Assembly: GCA_039028335.1 (NCBI GenBank)
Contig: JBCCIF010000002.1
Coordinates: 12,317-76,316, forward strand
Source of the DNA: Bacteroidota bacterium
GTDB lineage: Bacteria; Bacteroidota; Bacteroidia; Flavobacteriales_D; JABDKJ01
DNA length: 64,000 bases
Direction of reading: 5' to 3'
This document shows, piece by piece, positions 20,627 to 48,968 of this stretch (its first letter is position 1; each line of letters begins with the position of its first letter). The position numbers were made by a program, and so were the translations under genes. Below the pieces are notes generated by a model. It had not been told where the DNA came from and made no database searches. It worked only from the letters and a program-made list of their open reading frames with translations.

Positions 20627-21637
20627 ATGCCTACAAAAATCAGGCTTCAGAGACACGGAAAGAAGCGTTACCCTTATTATTATATCGTAGCCGTAGACGG
20701 CAGAGAAAAGAGAGATGGAAAGTACATTGAGCGTTTGGGAGAATATGACCCGAACACCAACCCAGCGACTATTAATCTCGATTTTGACCGCGCACTTTAT
20801 TGGTTGCAAGTTGGTGCTCAACCAACAGATACCATGCGAGCTATTTTGTCATACAAAGGAGTGATGCATAAAAATCACTTGTTGAATGGAGTCAAAAAAG
20901 GTGCATTCTCAGAAGATGAAGCAGAAAAGAGATTTGCTTCTTGGATGGAAGAGAAAGAATCTAAAATTAAAGCGAAAAGAGAAGGATTGATTGCTTCTGC
21001 AGATGCTGAATTGGCCGAAAGAATGAAAGCCGAAAAAGCCATAGCAGACAAACGAAGTGCTGAAATCTTGGCTAAGCAAGCTGCTGCTGCAGGTGTTATT
21101 GCTGCCGCTGCTGCTGGAGAAGCAGAAGATGCCGCTGACGTTGCAGATGAAGCAGGTGATATTGCAGAAGATGCTGCTGAGCAAGCAGAAGCCATGGCTG
21201 ATGTAGCCGAGGCTGCTGCTGAAGATGGCAATGCAGAAATCGCTGCCGAAGCTGCTGAAGCTGCCGAAGAAGCTGCTGCCGTTGCTGAAGAAGTTGCTGA
21301 AGTTGCGGAAGACGCGGCAAAAGAAGCTGAAACTGCGGCTGAAGCTGCTGCTGACATCGCTGAAGAAGCGACAGAAAAAGCTGAAGAGGCCGTTGAAGCT
21401 GCTGCTGAAGAAGGAACAGCTGAAGCTGTTGAAGCTGCTGAGAAAGCAGTAGAAGCTGCGGATGCTGCAACCGAAGCTGCTGAGGAAGCAGCTGAAGATG
21501 CTGCAGAAGCGAAAGAGGATGCAGAAGAAGCAAAAGAAGATGCAGAAGAAGCTGCAGAGGCCGCTGAAGATGCTGCTGAAGCTGCCGCTGAAGTAGCAGA
21601 AGAACAAGCCGAAGAGGCTGCTTCTGAAGAAGAATAA
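20627..21637 (+). CDS. rpsP: 30S ribosomal protein S16 with a long Ala/Glu-rich C-terminal extension
   Basis: The N-terminus MPTKIRLQRHGKKRYPYYYIVAVDGREKRDGKYIERLGEYDP...ALYWLQVGAQPTDT is canonical S16. Residues ~151-336 are low-complexity A/E sequence. Confidence 0.9.
   Translation: MPTKIRLQRHGKKRYPYYYIVAVDGREKRDGKYIERLGEYDPNTNPATINLDFDRALYWLQVGAQPTDTMRAILSYKGVMHKNHLLNGVKKGAFSEDEAEKRFASWMEEKESKIKAKREGLIASADAELAERMKAEKAIADKRSAEILAKQAAAAGVIAAAAAGEAEDAADVADEAGDIAEDAAEQAEAMADVAEAAAEDGNAEIAAEAAEAAEEAAAVAEEVAEVAEDAAKEAETAAEAAADIAEEATEKAEEAVEAAAEEGTAEAVEAAEKAVEAADAATEAAEEAAEDAAEAKEDAEEAKEDAEEAAEAAEDAAEAAAEVAEEQAEEAASEEE
21077..21637 (+). repeat. low-complexity degenerate GCT/GAA-rich coding repeat (Ala/Glu tail of S16)
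   Basis: Reiterated gaagctgctgaagaagc-type units. The region is open in several frames on both strands, which explains the long antisense ORFs in the ORF track. Confidence 0.7.
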
Positions 21638-22212: not shown

Positions 22213-22911
22213 ATGATCTTCCGCTTCAAACAATTTTCTGTCAAACATGAAAAGTCGGCAATGAAAGTTGGCACAGATGGAAATTTAATTGGAGCATGGA
22301 CAGAAGTTGAAGAAGCGAGAAAAGCATTGGATATTGGAACAGGCTGCGGATTGCTTGCTTTAATGTTGGCGCAAAAAAAATCAGAACTCTTTATTGATGC
22401 TATCGATATCGACAAAGCGGCAATAGAAGAAGCCACGGAGAATGTAGAGAACTCCCCTTTTAACCAACAAATAAACGTAATTGAAAGTCGATTTGAAGAT
22501 TGGTCCTCTTCGAATAAGTATGACCTCATCATTAGCAATCCCCCCTTCTATCATCAACAGTATGACGCAAAAGGGGAGAGCCGAATTCTTGCTCGACAAG
22601 GCTTAATAGATTGGAAGGACTGGCTCCCAAAAATTTCAGAACATCTTTCATCAGCAGGTCGATTCTCGTGCATCTTTCCGATTGATCAATTGGAAGAGGT
22701 GCTTCTTCGAGCCGAAAAATCTGGCCTTTTCCCCTTGAGAATCACACATATTAAACCTAAATCACATTTACCTCCACATCGAATTGCACTTTCTTTATCC
22801 ACATCTGATGAAGAGGTTCAAAAGGATCAACTGATCATCGAAAAAAAAGAAAGACATTCTTACACCCCAGAATATAAGGCCTTACTGAAAGATTACCTTA
22901 TTATATTCTGA
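22213..22911 (+). CDS. SAM-dependent methyltransferase, tRNA1(Val) (adenine37-N6)-methyltransferase-like
   Basis: 232 aa with FRFKQFSVKHEKSAMKVGTDGNLIG, SAM-binding LDIGTGCGLLALMLAQ, and the N6-adenine MTase motif DLIISNPPFY. Confidence 0.8.
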   Translation: MIFRFKQFSVKHEKSAMKVGTDGNLIGAWTEVEEARKALDIGTGCGLLALMLAQKKSELFIDAIDIDKAAIEEATENVENSPFNQQINVIESRFEDWSSSNKYDLIISNPPFYHQQYDAKGESRILARQGLIDWKDWLPKISEHLSSAGRFSCIFPIDQLEEVLLRAEKSGLFPLRITHIKPKSHLPPHRIALSLSTSDEEVQKDQLIIEKKERHSYTPEYKALLKDYLIIF

Positions 22912-23027: not shown

Positions 23028-23909
23028 ATGTTCAAAATACTATCCACACTATTGTTCGTATGCCTTATTAACCAAGGGCAAGCAGCAGAAAATATTTATG
23101 AACCGAAAGAGGAAAAGAAAACCTCTGAGGAAGTATATACAATCAATGTCAGCACGTCCGGTGTTGCCATTTCTCCTTCACGTGTACGATTTAATGTAAT
23201 GCCTGGTAAGTCGAAGACTCATCAGATTAAAATCAATAATGATACTGAAGAGGCCAAGGCATTTCGTGTAAAATTCAATGACTTTAACATGAACCAGTTC
23301 GGTAAAAGTCAATTCGTAGAACCCGGTAATGGTAAATATGGAATTTCCAATTGGGTAAGTGTTTCTCCATCATTTATTGAAGTGGCCCCCGGTGAGAAAA
23401 AAGAAGTCACCATTACCATTGATGTTCCCGATGACGAAGCGGGAAAAAAAGCAGCTTGGGGAATCATGATGATCGAAGAAGCAGCAGAAAGAAAAACACT
23501 TGAATACGACCAGAACAACAGCGACCAAATTTCATTTGGTATCGTTCCTACTCTGGCTTTTGGCGTTTTTCTTTATCAAAACCCTCCCGGTGTTTCAACC
23601 AATGAAGTTGAAATTCAAGATTTTTTAATTGAACAAAAAGATGAAAACTATTTTGTCAACATAGATGCGAAGAATGTAGGCACTGGAATTGCCTATTGCA
23701 AAGCTTATGTTGAATTAACCAACTTGAACAACGGTGAACAAGAGAAACTTTTGGTGAAATCTTTCACCATCGTTCCCGACCTCACCCGCGTTTTCAGTTT
23801 TGAACTACCCGAACATTTGAAAAACGGAAAGTATTCTGCTGTAGGGGTCATAGATTATGGCAACCAAGAGGAAATCGAAGCAGCGGAATTAGAATTTGAG
23901 ATCAAATAA
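23028..23909 (+). CDS. secreted two-Ig-domain protein, PapD-like pilus-chaperone candidate
   Basis: 293 aa with a signal peptide (MFKILSTLLFVCLINQGQA|AE). VAISPSRVRFNVMPGKSKTHQIKINNDTEEAKAFRVKF and VSVSPSFIEVAPGEKKEVTITIDVP resemble the PapD_N pattern (..tRviy....l.v.N....p..vq.w / tPPlfrlePg..q.vRi). A second beta-rich domain follows. The gene is confident. The function is inferred. Confidence 0.55.
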   Translation: MFKILSTLLFVCLINQGQAAENIYEPKEEKKTSEEVYTINVSTSGVAISPSRVRFNVMPGKSKTHQIKINNDTEEAKAFRVKFNDFNMNQFGKSQFVEPGNGKYGISNWVSVSPSFIEVAPGEKKEVTITIDVPDDEAGKKAAWGIMMIEEAAERKTLEYDQNNSDQISFGIVPTLAFGVFLYQNPPGVSTNEVEIQDFLIEQKDENYFVNIDAKNVGTGIAYCKAYVELTNLNNGEQEKLLVKSFTIVPDLTRVFSFELPEHLKNGKYSAVGVIDYGNQEEIEAAELEFEIK

Positions 23910-23954
23910 TTTTTATAAAACAAATGTTTACTAAACCCTTTAAAATTTAATGTT

Positions 23955-24737
23955 ATGAGAAAGTTGAAACTTATGATGTTGGCGGTGGTTGCAGGATTCT
24001 GCTTCCAGACGGCAAACGCACAGTTGATTGATGAGCAGGATGTAACGATTACAATGGAATTACAGCCAGTTCTTCAACTTGACATGAAAACCCCAAACCA
24101 GCTCGAATTTGTATTCGATGAAATTGAAGAGTACTACAGAGGTATTACTCAGTATGCAGCTACAGAATTAAAAGTAAGCTCAAGTGTATCTTGGGACCTT
24201 TATGCTGTAGGTAGATCTAATGGAACGAATTGCGCTGAGTGCTGGGACCAACAATTGGTTTACGGTTCTGGAGGTGTAACTTCTGGAGCACAAGCAAACT
24301 TACCTATGAGTCTTGTAGAATTGAGACAAAACAGAGCTAACTCTGGAGCAGGTGTTGCAACTAGTTTCCCAGATTACAACCAAGCATTCTCACCAGCAGC
24401 TACTGCTTCTGGAGGAAACAGCTTGTACGTAAACGGTGGTACTAATACACCTCCTGGTGTAAACGGTAAGTATATCGCAGGTCACTCTGGAACATCTGGT
24501 ACTCCTGGTACTGATGCTATGGTTGGTGGTTCTTGGATGACTCAAACTGGAACAGCATCTGATTACTACTACACAGTTGATTACAGAATTTTACCTGGTC
24601 TTCCTGCTATTTTCCCAATGGCATTTAACGAAGATGGGGTAACAGCTGAAGATTTATCTACAGTTTCTGCGACTGCTTATGCGCAGCCAGGTGTCTATAC
24701 AATGTACGTACAGTACGTATTGTTGGAAGACCAATAA
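23955..24737 (+). CDS. secreted Gly/Ser/Thr/Ala-rich subunit-like protein (candidate major fibre subunit)
   Basis: 260 aa with a signal peptide ending ANA|Q. The mature N-terminus has alternating hydrophobics (DVTITMELQPVLQL). The C-terminus is QPGVYTMYVQYVLLEDQ. A strong hairpin terminator follows the stop codon. Confidence 0.55.
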   Translation: MRKLKLMMLAVVAGFCFQTANAQLIDEQDVTITMELQPVLQLDMKTPNQLEFVFDEIEEYYRGITQYAATELKVSSSVSWDLYAVGRSNGTNCAECWDQQLVYGSGGVTSGAQANLPMSLVELRQNRANSGAGVATSFPDYNQAFSPAATASGGNSLYVNGGTNTPPGVNGKYIAGHSGTSGTPGTDAMVGGSWMTQTGTASDYYYTVDYRILPGLPAIFPMAFNEDGVTAEDLSTVSATAYAQPGVYTMYVQYVLLEDQ

Positions 24738-24746
24738 AAAGAATTA

Positions 24747-24787
24747 TCAAAGCCGGCTGAAGTCAGTCGGCTTTGAATTTTTTCTTT
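24747..24787 (+). terminator. rho-independent terminator/attenuator between the two subunit genes
   Basis: A 13-bp stem, tcaaagccggctg (24747-24759) paired with cagtcggctttga (24764-24776), contains one G-U pair and a 4-nt loop aagt. It is followed by atttttctttc. Confidence 0.7.
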
Positions 24788-24805
24788 CACCTTAAACTAT
24801 TTTTA

Positions 24806-25420
24806 ATGTCACCTTTAAAACAAACCATAGTCGGTCTTTTCCTTCTACTAGTTTTGCCATTCAGTGCTCAGATTCACTGTGGCAATGTCGAGTTGAGCGT
24901 TGATGGAAGCACCAATGCTATGATTACTTTCGATGATTTTTCGAAGTATAATGGAGGTGTAACATTAAACAATGCACTTACGCTCAGAGTAAAAGTCGAT
25001 CACCAAGCTGTACCGGATCCCGATTGCAGTTGGTTCCTTAACATGGAAGTATTTAATAATCCTGGAGCAGGAACACCCATCGATGAATGGGAAGAATTGT
25101 TTCAATACGGAAGTGGAAGCTCTGACAATCCAGATCTAGATATTCTTGAAATTAGAATTCGCAACACATGCGCTACGTCTCCTTTAAACGGGACATTTCA
25201 GACCTTTACCAATAACGGTGATATTATGGATATCATTCAATCCATGTTACCTGTAACGCCCGCAGGTTCATGTACAAGCAATGTAAACGGTCCTGGAGAT
25301 TTCAATACCAATTATGATGAATTCACATTCACCGTGGATATTCGAGTGCGACCTACGCTCAATTACAATCCCGGTATATATGAAATGAGTGTGCGTTTTC
25401 ATCTTGAAGAAAACCTATGA
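24806..25420 (+). CDS. secreted subunit-like protein, paralog of 23955-24737 (candidate minor subunit)
   Basis: The ORF-track TTG start (24773) lies inside the terminator stem. ATG 24806 gives MSPLKQTIVGLFLLLVLPFSA|Q. It shares ITFDDFSKYNGGVT and C-terminal NPGIYEMSVRFHLEENL with the upstream subunit and has four Cys residues. Confidence 0.55.
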   Translation: MSPLKQTIVGLFLLLVLPFSAQIHCGNVELSVDGSTNAMITFDDFSKYNGGVTLNNALTLRVKVDHQAVPDPDCSWFLNMEVFNNPGAGTPIDEWEELFQYGSGSSDNPDLDILEIRIRNTCATSPLNGTFQTFTNNGDIMDIIQSMLPVTPAGSCTSNVNGPGDFNTNYDEFTFTVDIRVRPTLNYNPGIYEMSVRFHLEENL

Positions 25421-25432
25421 TCTAAGCCAACC

Positions 25433-28400
25433 ATGAAAAACATTTACCTTAAACTCTTTTTGGCTTTTCTTCTGCTTTTAAGCGTATCTTTTGTTAGCGC
25501 ACAAACAGAAGAAACAGCATTCCCCATTGACTCACTCAATCAGATCATTGACAACTCTACAGATACTATTCCTACTCAAGAAAATACGCCAGTAATTTCA
25601 AACACAGAAGAGCAAGTACAACCCTTTGTTAATCAAGACAGCCTAAACATCAAGCCTCCAAAAATGAACCGAGGTATTGAAATTTCTTTCGCCAAATCCG
25701 AACTAAAACCTGAAAGTGGCGAAATTCTTTCAAATGTTTTAAAAATTGTCAATCACAATACAGAGGCAAAAATCATCCTTCCAGAATACAACCATCCCGC
25801 TTCCTGGAAACTCGTAGGACAAAAGGATGTATGGTATGAAATTCAAGCAAACGATACCATTTATGTGCCCGTTCGAATCATTCCTCAGGCTATCGCTTCA
25901 GGGCAATCAAATTATCAAATAAATGTATTTATCTATAATGATAAAGGCATACAAATCCTAACTGATCATTTCAATTGTGTTACAGATAAAACTGTGCAAT
26001 GGAATGTACAGAATAGCGATGACAAAATTTACTTTAAGCATGGAGAAAACTGGGAGGATTTATCTTTCAACATCTCTAATACTTCGGTTTTTCCACAAGA
26101 GATTTTCATGACAACTGCTGCCGCTAAAGGCAGTTTGGCATTAAGTCGTGATGGAGAAGAGCTTGAAGAAGGTGAATCAAGCACTTTTCAATTGGATTCA
26201 TTTGAGGATACAACATTTACCTATACAGCGACTATTGACAACCTCCGAAGAAACTTCAGACGCGTTTCACTGCTTGGACACATTCCAAACAGAAACAATC
26301 AAACGAGAAGGTATTCAGTATACATGAATACACAAGAAACAAAGTCTGTTGGTCAAACCGATTATAGAAATGGATCGAAAATAGATCTTATAAAACTGGC
26401 CAATGTTTTGAGAGCTACTGAATACAGCTCAAACGATTTACCTCTTGATGTTCAAGCTAACTATCAGAATATTTTAGGTGACTTTCCTTTTCTGTCCATC
26501 AACATGAACGGATACAAGAATTTGAATAACGATGCCAGTTTAAACTACTTTACTCAACTTAATTATAACCAAGTCTTTTGGAATGCACAGAACTTGGGAA
26601 ATATTCCATGGTATTTAGGTTATTTTTCGAGAGAATGGACAGCACAAGCTGGAAACATCAATGGAGGAATCGTAGGAATGCCTGCTGTTGGAAAAGGTGT
26701 AAAAGGATCTTATTTCATAAATCCTCAGCACGAGGTAGGAGGATTCTTTACCTCTTCAAAAGGATTTCTTCAAACCGGTCATACTGACTCATACGGTATT
26801 CATTATCAATACAATTTCCCAAATAATGGCTTTGTCATGGGAAAACTCGGACGTTATACAAATGGCCTGAATGGCACATCTGGTAACGTATTAAGTGTGC
26901 AATCAAGCTACCGTCTCGCTGAAAAACACAGTATCGGAGCATTTGGAGGATTCAGTACGAGAAACTTCTTATGGGGAGGAATCATGACACCTCAAACAGG
27001 AGGACTATTCGGCCTCAACTATACTTCTCGATTTCTTGAAAATAAATTATTTGTGAATGTGGGAGGTCGATACAATTCCAAATTCTTTGGAAACTCGACA
27101 ACTGAAATCCTTACTTCAGACGCTAAAGTACAATATGAAATCAGCAATAAATGGTCAGTATTCTATTCTGGAAACTATGCAAATATTGATGCATTTAATC
27201 CAGCTACGGCATTCTTCAATCCATTTTCGAGCTATGATTTTTTCCAGAACAGAGTCGTTTTCACAACGACAAATAGATGGGGAACATTCAACCCAGGATT
27301 GTACTATAATTTCAATAAATTCTTCGATTACAATGTACAAGCAAGAGGACTCTCTCTTCGTTTTTCAAGATTGAATTATTTGAAGAACACTTTGCTTTCC
27401 TTTTACTCAGAAGCAGGATATACAGATAATAGAGGTCAAAGCGAAATTGGTGACTATTTCAATTTCAGAATGAATATGTTGTACCGAATTCGAACCTTGA
27501 CCTTAACAAGTAATTATCGCTACGGTGCCAACAATAAATCAGCACAAGATTATCAAACGGCTACCGGACAAGCGCCTCAGTTGGGAAGAATTAGCGCTTC
27601 ACACCAATACCTGTTCAACAATCAACATTGGATATTGGAAACCAACACCTCTTATACGTACAACAATCGATTTAAATCACAGTTCTTAGGAATTTTTCCC
27701 GAGCTCTTTTACTTCTCGAATAGTGGATGGAGATATAGTATAAACCCTGGATATACCGTAAGTATTACCAATTACAATGCTGATCTACTCAATCTCTATC
27801 AGAATGTGCCAATTAATTCAGATGATGTTGGAAGTAATGTAAACAAGGGATTTAGATTGAATGTTTCAGCAAGAAAAACCTTTGGAATTCCTATTCCATT
27901 TGTTAAACCACAAAATTCAAATATTTCCTACAACACCTTCTATGATTTGAATGGAAATGATGTACAAGATAAAGGAGAAACTGCTGTTCCCAATGTCGTT
28001 CTAAAGCTCAATGACTACGAAGTTCTTACAAATGACAATGGTTTTGCCTTGATCGAGAACTTGCCGCATGAAACGTATTATTTGCAATCATTCCCACTTG
28101 AAGATATGCAAGGTTGGTTTGCAAAGGTTCCAGATTCACTGGTAATTTCAACAGACATGATTATTCAAATCCCATTCGTAAGAGGAGTAAAAGTAATGGG
28201 AGATGTCATTTTGAATAGACAAGAAATAGCCGTTACAGATGAAAGACCTTTTGATTTATCCAATATCAGAGTTTCTGCAAATGACGGCAATAAAGTCTAC
28301 AGCACGCTTACTAATTTTGACGGTTCATTTGACTTGTATCTTCCAAACGGAAACTATACTTTGACAATTGACGAAAATATATTGGGAGACAAGTATTCTT

Positions 28401-28537
28401 TGCTTCAAAATAATATTGAACTTGACTTAAATAGCGAAATGGAAAACGTGTACACAAGTTTCTATATCGTAGAAAAAGAAAGAAAAGTGAAAGTCAAGAA
28501 GTTTGGTTCACAAGGAACAATCATCAAAAGAAACTAG
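25433..28537 (+). CDS. large secreted outer-membrane protein: N-terminal Ig-like region, Tyr/Asn/Gly/Phe-rich beta-barrel-like core, two C-terminal SdrD-B/carboxypeptidase-regulatory-like domains (usher-like candidate)
   Basis: 1034 aa with a signal peptide (LLLLSVSFVSA|QT). The core, ~aa 300-830, has amphipathic beta-strand periodicity. The C-terminus has YDLNGNDVQDKGETAVPNVVLKLNDYEVLTNDNGFALIENLPHETYYL and a second NFDGSFDLYLPNGNYTLTI module. Confidence 0.5.
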   Translation: MKNIYLKLFLAFLLLLSVSFVSAQTEETAFPIDSLNQIIDNSTDTIPTQENTPVISNTEEQVQPFVNQDSLNIKPPKMNRGIEISFAKSELKPESGEILSNVLKIVNHNTEAKIILPEYNHPASWKLVGQKDVWYEIQANDTIYVPVRIIPQAIASGQSNYQINVFIYNDKGIQILTDHFNCVTDKTVQWNVQNSDDKIYFKHGENWEDLSFNISNTSVFPQEIFMTTAAAKGSLALSRDGEELEEGESSTFQLDSFEDTTFTYTATIDNLRRNFRRVSLLGHIPNRNNQTRRYSVYMNTQETKSVGQTDYRNGSKIDLIKLANVLRATEYSSNDLPLDVQANYQNILGDFPFLSINMNGYKNLNNDASLNYFTQLNYNQVFWNAQNLGNIPWYLGYFSREWTAQAGNINGGIVGMPAVGKGVKGSYFINPQHEVGGFFTSSKGFLQTGHTDSYGIHYQYNFPNNGFVMGKLGRYTNGLNGTSGNVLSVQSSYRLAEKHSIGAFGGFSTRNFLWGGIMTPQTGGLFGLNYTSRFLENKLFVNVGGRYNSKFFGNSTTEILTSDAKVQYEISNKWSVFYSGNYANIDAFNPATAFFNPFSSYDFFQNRVVFTTTNRWGTFNPGLYYNFNKFFDYNVQARGLSLRFSRLNYLKNTLLSFYSEAGYTDNRGQSEIGDYFNFRMNMLYRIRTLTLTSNYRYGANNKSAQDYQTATGQAPQLGRISASHQYLFNNQHWILETNTSYTYNNRFKSQFLGIFPELFYFSNSGWRYSINPGYTVSITNYNADLLNLYQNVPINSDDVGSNVNKGFRLNVSARKTFGIPIPFVKPQNSNISYNTFYDLNGNDVQDKGETAVPNVVLKLNDYEVLTNDNGFALIENLPHETYYLQSFPLEDMQGWFAKVPDSLVISTDMIIQIPFVRGVKVMGDVILNRQEIAVTDERPFDLSNIRVSANDGNKVYSTLTNFDGSFDLYLPNGNYTLTIDENILGDKYSLLQNNIELDLNSEMENVYTSFYIVEKERKVKVKKFGSQGTIIKRN

Positions 28538-29910
28538 GCAATTTCTTTTTCCTGAAATGTAATTCCAAGATTTTCCAATTCGTTTAGAATAGGTGTATAA
28601 ATTGCTGAATGTGTAGGCAGATGTACTCCTTTTAAGTTAATTTGATCGTTCAAAATCAATTTAGCTCCTATTGCTAAGGGAAGACCCACCGTTTTGGCCA
28701 TTCCTGTGTAGATTTCATCATCCCCAATACAAACCAATGAAGACTGTATTTCCTTGGCTTCTTCATCCATTCTAAACCTGAATTGATGCCACATGACAAT
28801 CATATCTTTATCACCATCTTCCAATTGCCATTTCCGCTCCAAAAGTTGCTGAAGTATTTGAGCTGGACTGGCATTTTCAATACCTACTTTCTCGTTTTCA
28901 AATAAGCCCAGCCATTCTAATTTATCAAATACCTCATCCTCAGGATCGAGACGCAGAACATACTTCAATTTTAATTCGACAGAATCACTTGGGTGATACG
29001 CCAAAAATGAATTGGTAAAATCGCGATAGGTCATGTTTTCCGACCCTTCTAACTGATATGTATCATCTGTCATCCCTAATTGAACAAGCGCATCCCAAGC
29101 TCGGCAATAGCCTGATTTCCTGAGCGTACCTCGATAAATTGTAGGAATGTCTTCAAGATTATAAATCGATCGATATTTAAGCGAATCTCTGTTGGCATAG
29201 CCATCAAATTTTCCATATCCATCAATCTGTATTTTCTCTATCCGCTTGAAAAGTTGGTTATAAGGAATGTATTTGTAACGACCATTTCTAATATATTGAA
29301 CGGCTCCTCCCTGCCCAGCCAAGACTACATTTCTCGGGTTCCAAGTAAATTTATAATTCCATGGATTGGTATCGCTCTCAGGTGCTATTAATCCTCCCGT
29401 GAAACTTTTGAAGCTTTCCATTACCCCACCCTTATTTTTCACCTCATCGATGATCTGCATAGCCGACATATGATCCAAGCCTGGATCAAGTCCCATTTCA
29501 TTCAGTATAATAATTCCAGCATCACAAGCATCTGCATCCAAAGCCTTTATATCGTCAGAAACGTATGATGGTGTAATAACGTCTTTCTTAAATGCTATGC
29601 AATCCTTAACCACGTGAATGTGAAAATGAGCAGGTAACATTGAAATAATGAGATCATGCTCTTTGATTTGCTGCTTTCGCTCATCCTCATTCATTGCATC
29701 GAAAACAAGTCCTTTGGCATTTTGCAGTCCTTCTAAACGCTCGTCAATTAGGCTTTGTTCCCTATCAGTAACCGTCAACACCCAATTGTTTTCACTTGAA
29801 TTCTCGGCTAAATATTTTATCAATGAGGAACTTGATCTTCCTGCCCCAATTACCAAAATCTTCTTCATCAATCGATTTATTGAATGCTTCAAATTTAGAT
29901 TTCTTTTCAT
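28534..29910 (-). CDS. saccharopine dehydrogenase family protein (NADP+, L-glutamate-forming type)
   Basis: 458 aa with an N-terminal Rossmann motif KILVIGAGRSSSSLIKYL, plus LNEMGLDPGLDHMSAMQIID and conserved C-terminal blocks. Confidence 0.85.
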   Translation of the reverse strand: MKRNLNLKHSINRLMKKILVIGAGRSSSSLIKYLAENSSENNWVLTVTDREQSLIDERLEGLQNAKGLVFDAMNEDERKQQIKEHDLIISMLPAHFHIHVVKDCIAFKKDVITPSYVSDDIKALDADACDAGIIILNEMGLDPGLDHMSAMQIIDEVKNKGGVMESFKSFTGGLIAPESDTNPWNYKFTWNPRNVVLAGQGGAVQYIRNGRYKYIPYNQLFKRIEKIQIDGYGKFDGYANRDSLKYRSIYNLEDIPTIYRGTLRKSGYCRAWDALVQLGMTDDTYQLEGSENMTYRDFTNSFLAYHPSDSVELKLKYVLRLDPEDEVFDKLEWLGLFENEKVGIENASPAQILQQLLERKWQLEDGDKDMIVMWHQFRFRMDEEAKEIQSSLVCIGDDEIYTGMAKTVGLPLAIGAKLILNDQINLKGVHLPTHSAIYTPILNELENLGITFQEKEIA

Positions 29911-30117: not shown

Positions 30118-31482
30118 ATGAAAAATTTGAAATTTCTCTTATTCTTCTTTATCGCATTTGCATTTATTTCATGTGCCACGTCTAAGTCCTTTTATAAAAA
30201 GGGCATCAAATTAGACGAAGCAGGGATGTCCGAAGAGGCAGCTGAAATGTACATGAAGTCATTGGCCAAGAAAAACACCAATGTCAATTCAAAGATTGCA
30301 CTGAAGAAAACAGGTCAGCGTGCCTTGAATGAAAAATTAGATGATTTCAATAAATCACATATGCTGGAAGATCACGATCAGGCGGTATATGAATTTGAAA
30401 TTGCAAAGCTATTCTTTGACCGTGTTGATGGGTATGGAATAAAATTAGAATTACCCAATCATTACAAAGAGCGCTATGAAAGTTCTGTAGTTGTTTATAA
30501 AGAACAATTGTACATTGAAGGCGTGACTTTGTATGAAGCCAAAAACTACAGCGAAGCGACACGAAAGTTCAATAAGATTTCCGGCTACGATCCGACTTAC
30601 AAGGACATTCAAGATTATAAGGTATTGACTTTTGCTGAGCCTTTGTATGAAAAAGGGATGCTGGCTTACGAGCGAGAAGAATGGAGAAAGGCATACAAAT
30701 ACTTCGATCAAATTCATAAGAAGAATCCAGAATTTCGTGATGTAACCGAGTTATGGCAAAGCAGTTTGGATTACGGAACATTTCCAGTAGCTGTGGTGCC
30801 CTTTGAACATGCTCCAAGTGATAAAGCGAAAAGCGAAAAATTACACTCGAGTATTTTAGGTGAAATAACCTCGATAGACAATCCATTTGTTAAAGTGGTT
30901 GATCGGGAAAATATTGATCAACTTATTGAGGAGCAAACATTAGGATTGAGTGGGGTTGTTGAAGAAGGAACAGCTGCTCAAGTTGGAAAAATACTAGGGG
31001 CGAAAGGAATGATTACAGGAGAAATACTGAATTATTCTCAAAGCCTTGGAAGATTGAAAAAGAAGACGGTACAAGCTTTCGAAGCTTATCAAGTAACCGT
31101 AAAAAATGAAGAAACAGGAAAAGAAGAACAAGTAACAAAATATAAACCCGCCAAATATTTTGATTACTATAATAAAAATGAAATTACCTTTTCAGTTCAG
31201 TACAAATGTACTTCGCTTGAGACAGGACAAATCATCTTTTCTAAAGTGTATGAGAAAACGACCAGTGATGAAATTCATTACGCAGTGTTTAATGGCGAGG
31301 GTAAGAAATTGGTTCCTTCAAAAGATGGACAACCAACTACTAGAAGGCAAGATTATGATGCATTGCAATCTCTTTTGAGAGCAAATAAGACGCTTCTAAC
31401 TCCAGAAGAATTGATTAGTGCCCATTATGATGGCATTGGCACGGAATTGGCAAAAGAAATTGAAGATTACCTTGAATTTTAA
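30118..31482 (+). CDS. lipoprotein with N-terminal TPR-like region and C-terminal CsgG/HfaB-like domain
   Basis: 454 aa with lipobox FAFISC. The C-terminal half, FPVAVVPFEHAPS...FVKVVDRENIDQLIEEQTLGLSGVVEEGTAAQVGKILGAKGMITGEI, follows the CsgG-family pattern (VaV.pF.n...f.vveR..ld.v..Eq.l..sG.v.....a..lGk.lGAd.vi.G.v). Confidence 0.7.
   Translation: MKNLKFLLFFFIAFAFISCATSKSFYKKGIKLDEAGMSEEAAEMYMKSLAKKNTNVNSKIALKKTGQRALNEKLDDFNKSHMLEDHDQAVYEFEIAKLFFDRVDGYGIKLELPNHYKERYESSVVVYKEQLYIEGVTLYEAKNYSEATRKFNKISGYDPTYKDIQDYKVLTFAEPLYEKGMLAYEREEWRKAYKYFDQIHKKNPEFRDVTELWQSSLDYGTFPVAVVPFEHAPSDKAKSEKLHSSILGEITSIDNPFVKVVDRENIDQLIEEQTLGLSGVVEEGTAAQVGKILGAKGMITGEILNYSQSLGRLKKKTVQAFEAYQVTVKNEETGKEEQVTKYKPAKYFDYYNKNEITFSVQYKCTSLETGQIIFSKVYEKTTSDEIHYAVFNGEGKKLVPSKDGQPTTRRQDYDALQSLLRANKTLLTPEELISAHYDGIGTELAKEIEDYLEF
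31436..31452 (+). promoter_or_regulatory. candidate sigma-54-type promoter inside the 3' end of the preceding gene
   Basis: TTGGCACGGAATTGGCA satisfies GG-N10-GC and lies 48 nt upstream of GTG 31485. Confidence 0.4.
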
Positions 31483-31484
31483 GT

Positions 31485-32861
31485 GTGAAGAAAATTACAT
31501 ACATACTGATACTGCTATTCCTTACTTCTTGTGGAAAACAAAAAGTAGTGATTTCTTCTATCCCCGAAATTGTCGAGAAAAATGATGATCGCCCAATTTG
31601 GATAAAAGAAAGACCGCTGGGAGACTTTGAGTACATTGGAATTGGGGCTGCGAGCAAAGTCCGGAATCCGGATGAATACATGAAAGTGGCCAAGAACAAT
31701 GCTCTTTCAGATTTATCATCAGAGATTAAGGTAACAGTCCAATCGAATTCATTCTTGTACGTACTCGATCGTAAGTACAAATTTGATGAAGAATTCAGCC
31801 AGGGAATCCAAACGTTTACCGATCAAAATTTAGAGGGTTTTGAATTCGTAGACTCCTATGAAACTGAGTTTGAATATTGGGTGTATTACCGATTAAATCG
31901 GGCTTTGTACAAAGAGAATTTTGAAAAAAGAAGGCAGGAATCCATCAAAATAAGCCATGATCTATTGAATAAAGGGCAAGAGCAGCGCTATGAGGGAAAT
32001 GTTGAAGGTGCGCTTTCACTTTTTACAAAAGCATTAGGGTCCTTACGCGAATATTGGGGTGAAAGTAATAAGGTAATTACTTCTGAAGGAGAAATCTTTC
32101 TTGAAAATGAAATTTTGTTCAATTTGCAAGAAATGATGAATGACATTAGTCTTCAGCCGGCTACAGAACAAGTCATTTTGAATATGGACAATGACTATCG
32201 ATATAATTTCGCAGTTCATGTAATCAAGAATGGAAATCCATTAAAAAATGCAAAACTCGATTTTTGTTATCCTTCGCAAAAAGGACTTGCTGAAAAGCAC
32301 TTCATCACGAATGAAAACGGAATGTCCGTTGTTCAGATTGAAGACTTTGACAAAGACTTCAAAAAGGAAAATCTGGAAGTGGAAATGGATCTTGAACATT
32401 GGTTAAGTAATGCGAGCGAAATAGAAAAAGAAATACTGAAAATCGTTAAGCCCCGCAAATTATCCATTCCTATTTTGCTGCAGAAGCCCACGTTTTTCTT
32501 CGATGTAAAGGAAAGTAATTTAGGGAGTGATTTGTCATCACCTGTTATCAGTAATGTAATTAAAAATGGTTTAACAAAAAGAGATTTTAAATTGAGTAAT
32601 AATCGAAATGAGAGTGATCTAATTGTTCAACTTTCGGCTTCAACAGAACAAGCCGGAACAAGTTATAGCTTTCACGTAGCTCATTGCGATATGGAAATCA
32701 AGGTCCTCGACAAGAAAGGAAATATTGTTTATCAAAACGCATTTCACGATGTCAAAGGATTGAATGTAAATTTTGAGTCAGCGGGAATAAAAGCACTAAG
32801 TAATGTCGCTGAAAAAGTAAAGAAAACAATGATTAAAGATCTGATAAACAGTGTTTTATAG
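31485..32861 (+). CDS. LPP20-like lipoprotein with extended C-terminal region
   Basis: 458 aa with a GTG start and lipobox LFLTSC. RPIWIKERPLGDFEYIGIGAASKVRNPDEYMKVAKNNALSDLSSEIKVTVQS matches the LPP20 lipoprotein pattern. Confidence 0.65.
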   Translation: MKKITYILILLFLTSCGKQKVVISSIPEIVEKNDDRPIWIKERPLGDFEYIGIGAASKVRNPDEYMKVAKNNALSDLSSEIKVTVQSNSFLYVLDRKYKFDEEFSQGIQTFTDQNLEGFEFVDSYETEFEYWVYYRLNRALYKENFEKRRQESIKISHDLLNKGQEQRYEGNVEGALSLFTKALGSLREYWGESNKVITSEGEIFLENEILFNLQEMMNDISLQPATEQVILNMDNDYRYNFAVHVIKNGNPLKNAKLDFCYPSQKGLAEKHFITNENGMSVVQIEDFDKDFKKENLEVEMDLEHWLSNASEIEKEILKIVKPRKLSIPILLQKPTFFFDVKESNLGSDLSSPVISNVIKNGLTKRDFKLSNNRNESDLIVQLSASTEQAGTSYSFHVAHCDMEIKVLDKKGNIVYQNAFHDVKGLNVNFESAGIKALSNVAEKVKKTMIKDLINSVL

Positions 32862-45647: not shown

Positions 45648-48600
45648 ATGACAAAAATAAATACCCTTATCATAGTTTTTCTGGTCAGCGTTGTTTCTTT
45701 GAATGCCCAAAATAAACCTCTTGATTGGCAAGAAGCGATGATTGAAAGAAGTGTTTCATTCGAAGAAATTCAGGAATCATTCAATGCTGCATGGGAAGGA
45801 AAATCCTATGAAAAAGGCAAAGGGTATAAACAATTCAAGCGATGGGAATACATCAACCGTTCTCGGCTTATAGATGGCAATCATCCACCAGCAGATATTG
45901 CTTGGAAAGAAATTAAAAAATTGGGCCTAAATAAGGCTAATTCGCAATTAAAAAATTTAGGCTCTTGGACGAGTATCGGACCGACAAATGTGTTTCCAAC
46001 AGACAATGCAGGCGCTCCTGGTTTAGGGCGTGTGAATGTGATCGCGGTTTCACCCTCTGACCCCAATACAATTTTCATCGGTGCTCCTGCAGGAGGATTA
46101 TGGAAAACGGAAAATGCCGGAAATTCCTGGACCCCGCTAACGGATAACCTGATGAGTATCGGAATATCGGGAATCGCAATAGATCCAAATAATGAAGACA
46201 TCATTTACATAGGAACAGGGGATGGCGATGGCAGCGACACCTATTCAATAGGCGTTTTAAAATCTTTAGATGGAGGTCAAAGCTGGAATGAAACTGGATT
46301 AACGTTCAACACCTCTCAGAGTAGAACCTTTAATGAATTGATTTTTGATCCAGAAGACTCAGACATACTCTATGCCGCTACGAGCAATGGTTTGTACAAA
46401 ACCATAGATGCGGGCGATAATTGGGTCAATTTGTTAAGTGGAAATATCGAAGATGTTGCAATTCACCCGCTCGATAATCAAATCATCTATGCCTGCACGG
46501 ATGAATTTTTTAAATCAATTAATGCAGGAGAGAGTTTCGAAGAAATTGAGCAAGGACTCCCCTCTTCCTTTAACGTGAGGAGATTTAAAATGGCTTTGAG
46601 TCCAGATGAACCGGATTATGTCTATTTGGTGGCTGGTGATCAATCTGATGATGGATTCTTAGGATTGTATCGTTCAACTGATACAGGAGAATCGTTTGAC
46701 TTGCGCTCTAATAGCCCAAATATTTTGCACTGGAGCCAAAGTGGAAATGGCGATGGTGGCCAATCATGGTACGATCTCGCTATTGCGGCAGATCCTGATG
46801 ATGCCGATCGCATTTTTGTTGGAGGAGTGAATGTTTGGTCTTCAGATGACGGAGGAGTCAATTGGGATATATCATCGCATTGGGTTTTTCCAAACTCGAT
46901 TGGATATACGCATGCGGATATCCATTTTCTTTCTTTTGAAAACGGAATTATTTATTGCGGAAGTGATGGAGGAATTTATCGCTCAGAAAATGACGGGAAT
47001 ACTTGGAATGATTTAAGTGATGGCTTAGGTATTACTCAATTTTATCGCATTGGTGTATCTGAAACTAATCCAGATCTCATCCTGGGCGGCACACAAGACA
47101 ATGGTACTTTTCTTTTCAAAGAAGGCAATTGGTTCAATGTCTTAGGGGCAGATGGCATGGAGTGCCTTATTTACCCGAATGATGAAGATCGCATGATAGG
47201 TTCTATCTATTTTGGATCGCTATCCAGAAGTTTGAATGGCGCGGATTCATGGAATGCCTTTTCAGACGGAGTTGACGAAAACGGAGCTTGGGTGACCCCT
47301 TTTGAAATTGACCCGCAAAATCCCAACAATGTTTTTGCGGCATATGATAATGTGTGGAAACATGAAAACGGATTTTGGACGCAAATATCTGAGTTTGGAA
47401 GTAGCGATTTCTTTGCACTGCGCGTTGCTCCTTCAAACAGTGATTATATCTATGCTGCCAAGAGTTCAGCTCTTTTTAGAACCACAGATGGTGGTGAAAA
47501 TTGGGAAAATATTACCGTAGGCCTTCCTGGTGTAGGTGTAGAATATATTGAAGTCGATCCAGATAATCCAGATAGAGTTTATACTGTCCATGGCGGATTC
47601 TCTTCAGGTGAAAAGGTTTTTATGTCCGAAGATGGTGGCCAGACTTGGCAGAACATTTCATATAATTTACCGAATGTACCCGTAAATTGTATTGAGTTTC
47701 AAAACGGATCTGATGGCGGAATTTATATTGGAACAGACATTGGAATATTTTACACAGACAACGCTTTGGTTAATTGGACTCCATTCATGAATGGATTACC
47801 AAATACCGTAATTAGAGAATTAGAAATTCACGATCAGAGTCAAAAAATAAGAGCAGCCACGTTTGGCAGGGGAATTTGGGAATCTAGCCTTTATCAAGGT
47901 TTCACAGAGGTCCCAACAGCTGACTTTGAGTCGAATAGATTTGTAATATGCGCAGGAGAAAGTATTGATTTTACCGATATTTCCATTGGAAATGATGGAG
48001 GTTGGGACTGGGAATTTGAAGGAGGTTCTCCTTCAATATCCGAGGATCAAAACCCTACCATAACTTATAATACTCCAGGCAGTTATCAGGTTACGCTAAC
48101 AGTTGACAATGCTAACGGAAGTGGAACAGAAATAAAAACCGCATTTATTCATGTTTTAGAGAATGAAGGACTTCCTTCTCCATTTGCAGAGCCTTTTGAA
48201 AACGTGCAAATACCTGGAGATTGGTTTGTTAACAATCCGGATGGTCAAGTGACTTGGGAAATTTCCTCATCTTCTGGAAACATTGGTTTAGGATCAGCTT
48301 ACATCAACAATATCACTAATACAGAAGGGCAAACAGATGAATTACAATCCCCTACGATTGATCTTTCTTCAGCCACTGATGCAGTATTGAGTTTTTATGT
48401 GGCGTATAGCAAGAAGGGTGAAAGTGACGATGACCGTTTACGTGTATATGTCTCTAAAGATTGTGGAGAGAATTGGTCTTTGCGGAAAACAATAACTGCC
48501 AATGGCGATCTTGAAACAGGTGCACCTCAAGTAGCTCCGTTCGCACCAGAAGCAGATCAATGGAATTTTATTGAAGTCACAAATATTCTAGAAAGTTTCT

Positions 48601-48968
48601 ATGTAGAGAACTTCCGAATGATGTTTAGATGGGAATCTGGAGGAGGAAACAATATTTATCTTGATGACATCAATTTAATTGGGACGGTTTCGAACAATGA
48701 CATTTCCATCGACAGAATACAATTGCAGCTCTTTCCGAACCCTAGCGAAGGTCAAAGCACCTTGGCCTTCTCGATTGGAGAAGCAGCTAATGCCACAATT
48801 TATATTACGGACTTGAATGGGAAGAAAGTGGCTTCCTTATATGCCGGGAATCTAAATGCAGGCCAACAGAGTTTAAATTTTGATAGCCCTGAACTGGCCA
48901 ATGGAACTTATTTAATAGTTATCGAATTGAACGATCAATTATTCTCTAAAAAATGGGTAAAAAAGTGA
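45648..48968 (+). CDS. secreted BNR/Asp-box repeat protein with PKD domain and T9SS type-A C-terminal sorting domain
   Basis: 1106 aa with a signal peptide and at least 8 Asp-box-like SxDxGxxW motifs (SLDGGQSWN, SDDGGVNWD, SENDGNTWN, TTDGGENWE, SEDGGQTWQ ...). The PKD-like region is ITYNTPGSYQVTLTVDNANG. The C-terminus is LFPNPSEGQSTLAF...GTYLIVIELNDQLFSKKWVKK. Confidence 0.85.
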   Translation: MTKINTLIIVFLVSVVSLNAQNKPLDWQEAMIERSVSFEEIQESFNAAWEGKSYEKGKGYKQFKRWEYINRSRLIDGNHPPADIAWKEIKKLGLNKANSQLKNLGSWTSIGPTNVFPTDNAGAPGLGRVNVIAVSPSDPNTIFIGAPAGGLWKTENAGNSWTPLTDNLMSIGISGIAIDPNNEDIIYIGTGDGDGSDTYSIGVLKSLDGGQSWNETGLTFNTSQSRTFNELIFDPEDSDILYAATSNGLYKTIDAGDNWVNLLSGNIEDVAIHPLDNQIIYACTDEFFKSINAGESFEEIEQGLPSSFNVRRFKMALSPDEPDYVYLVAGDQSDDGFLGLYRSTDTGESFDLRSNSPNILHWSQSGNGDGGQSWYDLAIAADPDDADRIFVGGVNVWSSDDGGVNWDISSHWVFPNSIGYTHADIHFLSFENGIIYCGSDGGIYRSENDGNTWNDLSDGLGITQFYRIGVSETNPDLILGGTQDNGTFLFKEGNWFNVLGADGMECLIYPNDEDRMIGSIYFGSLSRSLNGADSWNAFSDGVDENGAWVTPFEIDPQNPNNVFAAYDNVWKHENGFWTQISEFGSSDFFALRVAPSNSDYIYAAKSSALFRTTDGGENWENITVGLPGVGVEYIEVDPDNPDRVYTVHGGFSSGEKVFMSEDGGQTWQNISYNLPNVPVNCIEFQNGSDGGIYIGTDIGIFYTDNALVNWTPFMNGLPNTVIRELEIHDQSQKIRAATFGRGIWESSLYQGFTEVPTADFESNRFVICAGESIDFTDISIGNDGGWDWEFEGGSPSISEDQNPTITYNTPGSYQVTLTVDNANGSGTEIKTAFIHVLENEGLPSPFAEPFENVQIPGDWFVNNPDGQVTWEISSSSGNIGLGSAYINNITNTEGQTDELQSPTIDLSSATDAVLSFYVAYSKKGESDDDRLRVYVSKDCGENWSLRKTITANGDLETGAPQVAPFAPEADQWNFIEVTNILESFYVENFRMMFRWESGGGNNIYLDDINLIGTVSNNDISIDRIQLQLFPNPSEGQSTLAFSIGEAANATIYITDLNGKKVASLYAGNLNAGQQSLNFDSPELANGTYLIVIELNDQLFSKKWVKK

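Follow-up and report, generated by a model that had tools for sequence, protein, structure and literature searches.

What the four genes at positions 23028–28537 of the window build, and by which route, is the question raised by this locus. The window is the whole stretch of 64,000 nucleotides analysed here, from contig JBCCIF010000002.1 of a Bacteroidota metagenome-assembled genome (MAG; GCA_039028335.1; locus tags AAF487_00660/00670). The genes are four open reading frames (ORFs) on the plus strand, confirmed at the coordinates first listed, with intergenic gaps of 45, 35 and 12 bp in that list: g1 (23028–23909, 293 aa), g2 (23955–24737, 260 aa), g3 (24806–25420, 204 aa) and g4 (25433–28537, 1034 aa). 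Sec-type signals are read from the sequence in all four: MFKILSTLLFVCLINQGQA before AE in g1, MRKLKLMMLAVVAGFCFQTANA before QL in g2, MSPLKQTIVGLFLLLVLPFSAQ before IH in g3 and MKNIYLKLFLAFLLLLSVSFVSA before QT in g4. The co-directional, tightly spaced Sec-signal genes of the initial annotation are thus confirmed. Only the start of g3 was corrected, from TTG 24773 in the ORF list to ATG 24806, because the TTG lies within the T-run of a terminator-like hairpin (24747–24776) and 204 aa is the family median. The same annotation had proposed an uncharacterised fibre system of the chaperone-usher kind. The operon probably shows the makers of TLP-1-type fibres, Bacteroidota, and their assembly route. 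The fibre itself was imaged in 2024 as the orphan TLP-1; the operon and its machinery appear undescribed.

The product of g2 is almost certainly the subunit of a TLP-1-type fibre. It has no Pfam or NCBIfam match. A profile of 56 g2 homologues matches two entries among PDB sequences, those of TLP-1a/b (E 4.2e-58 and 3e-56). The single g2 sequence matches 9ikk_A and 9ikj_A (phmmer, E 3.3e-42 and 4.2e-41; residues 24–258 against 2–236), and the alignment spans the second mature residue to the C-terminus. Identity to TLP-1 is 36.8% over 242 aa (BLASTP), 43% at the family maximum and up to 56% in metagenomic relatives; g2 of the window is a marine-type relative of TLP-1, not the identical protein. 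The predicted cleavage site of g2 coincides with the first residue modelled in the TLP-1 cryo-electron microscopy (cryo-EM) structures.

Entries 9IKJ/9IKK are the cryo-EM structures of TLP-1a/TLP-1b, fibrils from filtered Tsinghua Lotus Pond water, solved at 3.2–3.5 Å in the first CryoSeek paper (Wang et al., PNAS 2024, PMC11494351). The fibrils are helical tubules, 8 nm wide, with a 15-Å lumen. The protomer consists of a six-strand head with an open cleft and an N-terminal extension. Strand beta1 of protomer n+4 enters the cleft of protomer n and completes its immunoglobulin (Ig)-like domain, which is donor-strand exchange. In AlphaFold2 (AF2) models of the family the N-terminus is reported disordered in the monomer. 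No source organism was matched by mass spectrometry or metagenome searches of the authors, who built the deposited sequence from density and give no analysis of gene neighbourhood, chaperone or usher (PMC11494351). A perspective of February 2026 still calls TLP filaments unidentified. In the later literature, as far as searchable, no paper links TLP-1 to an organism, operon or assembly factors.

The donor strand of g2 is its mature N-terminus, QLIDEQDVTITMELQP (24021–24068, plus strand), which aligns with beta1 of TLP-1; in the alignment, QLIDEQDVTITMELQPVLQL of g2 stands opposite (x)LISEQNVTVTMDLQPVLQL, starting at residue 2 of TLP-1. This segment is near-invariant across the 56 homologues. 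The AF2 model of g2 is of low confidence (predicted local distance difference test, pLDDT, 57), with the first ~15 residues disordered; groove geometry was therefore not judged from it. Its best Foldseek matches are 9ikj_A (template-modelling score, TM, 0.62) and 9ikk_A (TM 0.59), both at E about 1e-14. The weaker matches are all donor-strand subunits (TasA, FimF/G/I, CfaB, CS20, Caf1, SafA, CsuE); TasA (8aur) is third in order and the best outside TLP. The incomplete subunit folds of the initial annotation find support in the end-to-end homology of g2 to TLP-1: by comparison with the solved structure, g2 would not fold self-sufficiently, since another protomer supplies the N-terminal strand that completes the Ig-like fold. 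Within the g2 family, TLP-1a/b are seen to polymerise by exchange of the N-terminal donor strand, and their tubules occur free in water; the same is predicted for g2.

One genome per species was scanned for g2 relatives. Relatives occur in at least 122 species, and 80 loci were kept for the counts given below; g2 homologue clusters exceed 712. The loci belong to Crocinitomicaceae, Salibacteraceae, Vicingaceae, Flavobacteriaceae, Chitinophagales, Sphingobacteriales and Bacteroidales, with Flavicella, Pseudotenacibaculum, Wenyingzhuangia and Polaribacter as cultured carriers among Flavobacteriaceae. The same-strand order g1-g2-g3-g4 is kept throughout: g2 and g3 are present in 80/80 loci, g1 in 79/80 and g4 in 78/80. 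Two of the three missing genes fall at contig ends. In the third case (L080) the ~1.3 kb after g3 is without g4 match; possibly g4 is lengthened there by a long addition at its N-terminus, as it is in Polaribacter. An order fixed in 78–80 of 80 loci is therefore not due to chance, and the co-conservation expected by the annotation holds. Cross-species identity is 56–89% for g2, 41–56% for g1, 35–61% for g3 and 29–39% for g4. Variants are seen. In Polaribacter g4 reaches 1218–1705 aa through N-terminal additions (L068 8469–12944, L074 4453–8109, L079 8650–13767). Two tandem copies of g2 stand in a Bacteroidales MAG (L049 6088–7717), and an additional ORF of 310 aa stands between g2 and g3 in another MAG (L066 7979–8911).

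Closer relatives of TLP-1a, at 50–56% identity, were found when JGI metagenomes were scanned with TLP-1a as the query; the closest are those of L118, L094 and L096 (54–56%). On long contigs they are always followed by g3 and g4, the latter of about 1180 aa, and g1 lies upstream in 3/5 contigs of this clade. A large gene (1665 and 1031 aa) is present upstream of g1 in L110 and L118.

The product of g3 is a paralogue of g2, as first proposed, over the whole length (BLASTP E 0.001; hhalign 98.2%, E 3.5e-14, 186 columns). It has no Pfam or NCBIfam match. Both its first acceptor strand and the PG(V/I)Y...(Y/F).L strand at the C-terminus are retained; the 11 donor-strand residues DEQDVTITMEL of g2 are without counterpart (hhalign). 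Four Cys are conserved, at positions 36, 85, 133 and 167. In chaperone-usher pili the distal tip subunit (FimH/PapG) accepts a strand and cannot donate one. Since g3 would likewise accept a strand and not donate one, it is read from the alignments as the likely candidate for a minor tip or initiator subunit. Neither g2 nor g3 has a FimA/Mfa Pfam match or a lipobox Cys at the mature N-terminus. Compared with 15 E. coli pilins, the g2 and g3 families reach 33% and 6% (hhalign), with no PF00419/PF05229 match.

A terminator- or attenuator-like hairpin with a T-run is located directly 3' of the g2 stop (24747–24786, plus strand; 13-bp stem with 7 GC pairs). A stable hairpin (folding free energy, dG, ≤ −12) follows g2 in 80/80 loci, as compared with 17/79 after g1 and 22/78 after g3; the median is −20.4 kcal/mol for g2 and near −9 for the other two. 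Lineages differ in the sequence of the g2 hairpin, and a T-rich tail is present in 61/80. These properties would fit attenuation that boosts major-subunit output over g3 and g4.

The product of g1 belongs to the DUF916+DUF3324 (WxLIP) family and is a candidate periplasmic donor-strand chaperone. The N-terminal domain matches PF06030 (WxLIP_PGBD/DUF916) at 36.6 bits, with a gathering cut-off of 27.3; the match is found in 31/32 members of the g1 family. Homology to WxLIPs of Firmicutes extends over both domains (hhalign 98.0%, E 2.7e-13, 232 columns), with residues 49–281 aligned to 49–283 of Enterococcus DUF916+DUF3324 proteins at 97.5–98.0%. Actinobacterial DUF916 proteins are matched at 96% and Deinococcus proteins at 99.3% (hhalign). 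A tblastn search of plasmids returned Enterococcus "DUF916 and DUF3324 domain-containing" proteins over g1 residues 59–280. The Pfam DUF3324 model itself has no match in the g1 family, and the second domain is placed by hhalign. The two Ig-type domains of the annotation thus stand as two beta-sandwiches, by homology, within residues 49–281. The single g1 sequence gives nothing useful against the PDB; the profile gives weak C2-domain-like matches for domain 2 and no chaperone. The family is 281–316 aa long with a common C-terminal ending. A C-terminal transmembrane (TM) helix is absent, g1 ending with ...EIEAAELEFEIK straight after domain 2; the protein is therefore expected to be soluble in the periplasm.

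The strings of g1 once taken as PapD_N-like do not place it in that family. There is no PapD_N or PapD_C match (PF00345/PF02753) in g1. Sub-threshold matches to the PapD-like clan are scattered among the 32 members: Cep192_D6 in 27, MSP in 14, ASH in 7 and PapD_N in 1 (3.3e-5). The segment that could be donated (G1-like strand) is ISFGIVPTLAFGVFLYQNPP, residues 168–187 (23529–23588, plus strand), where conservation in the family peaks. This alternating-hydrophobic strand comes after AAWGIMMIEE and the long loop behind it, with consensus FGIVPTxAFGVFxYQNPP and invariant G171, P174, T175, A177, F178, G179, Y183, Q184, N185, P186 and P187. It aligns with the LGNIYTYTIGLVLT strand of an Enterococcus WxLIP. 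For WxLIP:WxL pairs AF2 is reported to predict that a hairpin strand of DUF916 becomes ordered alongside one of the WxL strands, in parallel orientation, and so completes the beta-sandwich of WxL; by itself, DUF916 was unstable in experiment (PMC10599100). The prediction follows the logic of donor-strand complementation, although it was not so described by its authors. Residues 168–187 would be the counterpart of the DUF916 donating hairpin, and by strand donation to g2/g3 g1 may act as their chaperone.

The product of g4 is predicted to be an outer-membrane barrel protein of usher-like layout. The AF2 model (13 sequences) has pLDDT 75.4 overall and 80–94 in the barrel. Residues 24–75 form a disordered, poorly conserved stretch, followed by two N-terminal beta-sandwich domains at residues 77–268 (25661–26236; DSSP of the model), a barrel at residues 292–837 (26306–27943), whose ~28–30 long antiparallel strands are counted from the DSSP string of the model only, and two C-terminal beta-sandwich domains at residues 855–1014 (27995–28474), SdrD_B-like and CarboxypepD_reg-like (Pfam matches at 835–885 and 938–980), all on the plus strand. 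The annotation had predicted this core flanked by sandwich domains, and the model bears it out. Column identity is highest in the C-terminal domains (0.55–0.62), 0.45–0.47 in the N-terminal sandwiches and 0.15 in the first 75 aa; the C-terminal conservation is consistent with docking of a conserved partner. Among PDB structures (Foldseek) the first match is FimD (E 3.6e-12, 873 columns), and six further FimD entries and PapC are also matched. With TM-scores to FimD as low as 0.26–0.36, the likeness to ushers is architectural and not evidence of homology. The single g4 sequence gives nothing useful against the PDB; profiles give NOMO-type transthyretin-like repeats for the C-terminal domains only. 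In an exhaustive hidden Markov model (HMM) search, 455 cluster representatives, most of them matched over the full length, reach E ≤ 1e-30, and g4 is the founder of a large unnamed barrel family. Some relatives carry SPOR or OmpA-family peptidoglycan-binding domains straight after the C-terminal sandwiches (P0285 residues 1084–1152, P0403 residues 1072–1141, P0397 residues 1082–1174). These fusions place the C-terminus of g4 in the periplasm, where the C-terminal domains of ushers also lie, and the machine is possibly anchored to the cell wall. The N-terminal domains, too, would lie on the periplasmic side. From the modelled architecture g4 may act as an usher.

Taken as a mechanism, it is likely that the operon builds a TLP-1-type pilus by a chaperone-usher-like route that uses different protein families. 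All four proteins would cross the inner membrane by Sec, as read from their signals; the cleavage site of g2 fits the solved fibril. Soluble g1 would cap the open groove of g2 and g3 in the periplasm by lending its DUF916 strand, a step suggested by WxLIP homology and the AF2 prediction for WxLIP:WxL. Complexes of g1 with a subunit would dock on the periplasmic beta-sandwiches of g4, a step suggested by its domain layout, its fold match to ushers and the fusions with SPOR or OmpA domains. Having a groove but no donor strand, g3 would enter first and form the distal tip. Serial addition of g2 would follow, the N-terminal strand QLIDEQDVTITMEL displacing the chaperone strand in an earlier subunit, probably at g4. 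The hairpin after g2 would let more of the major subunit be made than of g3 and g4, as happens in other pilus operons. Exchange from n+4 to n means that each tubule comprises four strand-linked protofilaments. Four chains from g4 in clusters or oligomers may come together outside the cell; failing that, assembly would be still less like the usher model.

Several points weigh against this mechanism. A pore of ~30 strands cannot pass an 8-nm tubule, so that the four chains need coordination. The published role of WxLIP is peptidoglycan and host binding, not chaperoning. In two of the five contigs of the TLP-1a-like clade (L095 and L115) g1 is not adjacent, with no homologue within 3–7 kb upstream of g2-g3-g4. 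Against seven E. coli PapD-type chaperones g1 reaches only 11.5% (hhalign; E 0.0026 full length, decoy E 0.24). Against six E. coli ushers g4 reaches 0.9% (hhalign, E 0.06); PF00577 (Usher) has no match in g4 at E ≤ 1 and in 0/40 diverse family members, and no plug is recognised in the DSSP string of the g4 model. To the low TM-scores of g4 are added matches of its model to LptD (1.4e-8) and to MtrB and TonB-dependent receptors (about 1e-6), with weaker E-values than FimD, and to these the low confidence of the g2 model. The profile checks proposed with the annotation (PF00345/PF02753, PF00577, PF05229, PF00419) give no family-level match in g1–g4. Of the chaperone-usher claim, the usher-type logic is retained (strand-exchange subunit, barrel layout, co-conservation), and classical family membership of g1 or g4 is not. 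Confidence in the mechanism is kept well short of certainty because of the n+4 puzzle, the lack of sequence homology and the hypothetical g1:g2 complex.

The same families could instead be extremely diverged PapD and usher members, that is, a deep seventh chaperone-usher clade and not an independent invention. FimD and PapC are the best structural matches of g4 over about 860 columns, its domain order equals that of ushers, and the g1 family has sub-threshold matches to the PapD-like clan, with a full-length E-value against chaperones lower than that of the decoy. This is nevertheless unlikely in view of the hhalign probabilities just given, the absence of PF00577 from all 40 members, a barrel whose strand number exceeds the 24 of ushers and in which no plug was seen, and the robust placement of g1 in another Pfam family, PF06030. 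Alternatively, the same fibre would be made with no chaperone-usher step, g4 serving only as an export pore, polymerisation taking place outside the cell on g3 as nucleator (like TasA/TapA, curli CsgB and cannulae), and g1 serving as a peptidoglycan-binding scaffold or anchor. Chaperone-free donor-strand fibres exist, as TasA, third among the structural matches of g2, and archaeal cannulae (PMC12518558) attest; peptidoglycan and host binding is the role given to WxLIP in the literature (PMC10599100); a four-protofilament n+4 lattice is hard to extrude via one usher; and g1 is non-adjacent in the two contigs named above. Yet g1 has lost its anchor and is co-conserved with the subunits in 79/80 loci, four conserved beta-sandwiches in g4, the C-terminal pair best conserved, are typical of a docking platform, and an unprotected groove-open Ig subunit in the periplasm would be unusual. 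A chaperone-free route is accordingly judged improbable.

Two further explanations were weighed. In one, the cassette is a diderm WxL-type surface platform, wall-bound and non-fibrous, and the likeness of g2 to TLP-1 implies no fibres here. Membership of g1 in the WxLIP family, the arrangement of one WxLIP with two small secreted paralogues, which mirrors the commonest WxL cluster, and the alike C-terminal strand motifs of g2/g3 and WxL proteins speak for it; it becomes highly improbable once g2 is seen to match TLP-1 at full length with the donor strand conserved, g2/g3 to reach <4% against WxL domains (hhalign) with no homology detectable, and the closer TLP-1a relatives (50–56% identity) to stand in the same g2-g3-g4 arrangement. 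In the other, the subunits are exported and assembled by the type IX secretion system (T9SS) or by a lipoprotein- and protease-dependent type V pathway, and g4 is unrelated to the fibre. The genome does encode a T9SS cargo, and type V pili likewise use strand exchange; but g2/g3 lack a T9SS C-terminal domain (CTD), FimA/Mfa match and lipobox Cys, mature TLP-1 begins after a Sec cleavage site and not after an Arg/Lys-specific protease site, and g4 is adjacent in 78/80 loci, which leaves this explanation barely credible. No T9SS CTD (TIGR04183/TIGR04131) matches g1–g4 at E ≤ 1, in line with the annotation's statement on the subunits, and the ORF at 45648–48968 of the window, which served as positive control, is a genuine T9SS cargo (TIGR04183 at residues 1028–1106, 44.4 bits, cut-off 23).

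The chaperone-usher-like route remains preferred, and its likenesses and differences can be given by system. With TLP-1a/b, g2 shares the full length, the mature donor-strand N-terminus and the C-terminal strand, with model TM about 0.6; TLP-1a/b were described without organism, gene, operon or assembly factors. For g2 the same n+4 tubule is predicted. With chaperone-usher systems the operon logic is shared: a chaperone-like protein, a major and a minor subunit, and a large outer-membrane barrel with beta-sandwiches on both sides. Also shared are an incomplete Ig-like subunit with N-terminal donor strand (via TLP-1 homology), one subunit without donor strand, an attenuator-like hairpin after the major-subunit gene, and FimD and PapC as best structural matches of the barrel. 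No component has significant sequence homology or belongs by sequence to the Usher, PapD or Fimbrial/SCPU families, and the candidate chaperone comes from DUF916/WxLIP, not from PapD. Ushers have a 24-stranded barrel and a plug; g4 has ~28–30 strands (DSSP string), two N-terminal domains and no recognised plug. Exchange in chaperone-usher pili is n+1 to n; in TLP-1 it is n+4 to n, giving four protofilaments and a hollow tubule. Typical pilins are smaller than the TLP-1-type subunit (about 236 aa). The present system, in distinction, is found in Bacteroidota and Deinococcota.

TasA fibres, archaeal bundling pili or threads, and cannulae also rely on donor-strand complementation of beta-sandwich subunits; they are without a dedicated two-domain periplasmic partner or outer-membrane barrel, and no sequence similarity to the present system was found. 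Type V pili (FimA/Mfa) occur in the same phylum and likewise form fibres by strand exchange. Type V pilins are lipoproteins, processed by an Arg/Lys-specific protease and polymerised via a C-terminal strand; g2 and g3 differ in having Sec type I signals and no lipobox, and the donor strand of g2 is N-terminal.

In the Gram-positive WxL cluster a WxLIP (DUF916+DUF3324+TM helix) is accompanied by two WxL proteins, one small and one large (Hassan & Williamson 2023, PMC10599100). Homology of g1 to WxLIP covers both domains, and one WxLIP-type gene stands beside two secreted partner genes in both. An AF2-predicted WxLIP strand completes the partner sandwich, and the partners share a terminal G-x-Y-x-x-x-h-x-[W/F/Y]-x-h strand motif with g2/g3. 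Unlike WxLIP, g1 lacks the TM helix; g2 and g3 are not detectably WxL domains (PF13731; no Pfam match), and the present cassette has no LPXTG protein and an added outer-membrane barrel. We know of no WxL protein that polymerises. The possibility that g2/g3 are diverged WxL domains found no support, hhalign giving ≤ 3.1% against four WxL domains of two Enterococcus plasmids, with only the C-terminal strand motif shared. A pattern for the N-terminal beta2-beta3 motif was drawn up after the fact and carries no evidential weight. A similar terminal strand, G-x-Y-x-x-x-h-x-[W/F/Y/L/H]-x-h, is seen in DUF916-type partners of every phylum examined, for example PGIYEMSVRFHLEENL in g3 and PGSYEGHVEWNLANTL in BspA-WxL; the regions compared are L087 4737–10083 and L091 2434–6867 of Enterococcus plasmids and 24690–24737 (g2) and 25373–25420 (g3) of the window. 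In TLP-1-type subunits the last strand may correspond to the second 'WxL' motif; tests with profiles gave a negative result.

An analogous four-gene cassette is found on three Deinococcus plasmids (L088 7898–13644, L089 5869–11554, L090 5951–11553); its products are a protein of ~292 aa, the g1 homologue, a protein of ~180 aa and one of ~1020–1090 aa. The largest matches g4 (hhalign 90.1%, E 1.6e-6, 289 columns). No homology to g2/g3 was detectable in the small partner proteins of Deinococcus and actinobacteria, with profiles of 2–3 sequences. The N-terminus of the larger Deinococcus subunit, TVNLKLPEATALHLATTNLEFDI, resembles the donor and first acceptor strands of g2.

A wider proposal is put forward tentatively, as one slightly more apt to fail than to hold. 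Donor-strand chaperones would have a second widespread family in DUF916/WxLIP, which in diderms (Bacteroidota, Deinococcota) would partner 'ushers' of ~1000 aa and ~28–30 strands for four-protofilament TLP-1-type pili; in monoderms the anchored form would hold WxL proteins by strand donation. If so, the pathway would have arisen independently of PapD/FimD or share with them no more than an ancient origin, and Gram-positive WxL clusters would be its usher-less relatives.

The surroundings of the cassette are housekeeping genes: upstream a TrmN-like tRNA methyltransferase (22213–22911), downstream, on the opposite strand, saccharopine dehydrogenase (28534–29910). The cassette therefore stands alone. 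Among related loci no conserved accessory genes or regulators lie beside it, only lineage-specific housekeeping synteny (RecG, RsmB-like gene, tetratricopeptide repeat (TPR) protein, M1 peptidase). No PADLOC defence model matches g1, g2, g3 or g4. A sigma-70 promoter scan was uninformative (11 sites, 19 expected), the sigma-70 model being ill-suited to Bacteroidota promoters, and inspection by eye found no clean copy of the Bacteroidota -7 motif (TAnnTTTG) 5' of g1. At 30118–32861, 1.6 kb 3' of g4, lie the genes of a TPR + CsgG-like lipoprotein (PF03783, 34.9 bits) and, next to it, an LPP20 lipoprotein with DUF3244; the two resemble a separate curli-type secretion-like pair, without association with the cassette in other genomes examined. 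Residues 577–746 of the T9SS cargo form a beta-propeller region of the F510_1955-like glycosylhydrolase / Ycf48-like type. The ORF at 20627–21637 encodes ribosomal protein S16 (PF00886, residues 9–67) of 336 aa, with an Ala/Glu-rich low-complexity C-terminal tail of ~250 aa.

The fibre is already known. In the searchable literature there appears to be no description of the operon, of the phylum that produces the fibre, of the partners resembling chaperone and usher, of the relatives in Deinococcus or of the link to WxL clusters. To our knowledge, type V pili and T9SS-dependent fibres are the only surface fibres characterised in Bacteroidota. The operon probably gives the orphan TLP-1a/b fibrils a phylum, Bacteroidota, together with candidate machinery. 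A chaperone-usher-like pathway drawn from families in which no sequence homology to PapD or ushers is detectable bears on single versus multiple origins of donor-strand assembly machines, and the n+4 lattice raises the new question of joint elongation of four strand-linked chains. For WxLIP in the virulence-associated WxL loci of Enterococcus, Listeria and Lactobacillus a mechanistic reinterpretation is offered. The system is common (more than 700 g2 clusters, at least 122 species genomes, 455 g4 cluster representatives), and carriers in culture (Polaribacter uvawellassae, Wenyingzhuangia heitensis and W. aestuarii, Flavicella sediminum, Pseudotenacibaculum haliotis) make it testable. Marine and freshwater Flavobacteriales dominate the degradation of particles and algal blooms; the system is present in them, and the fibres may therefore matter for attachment.

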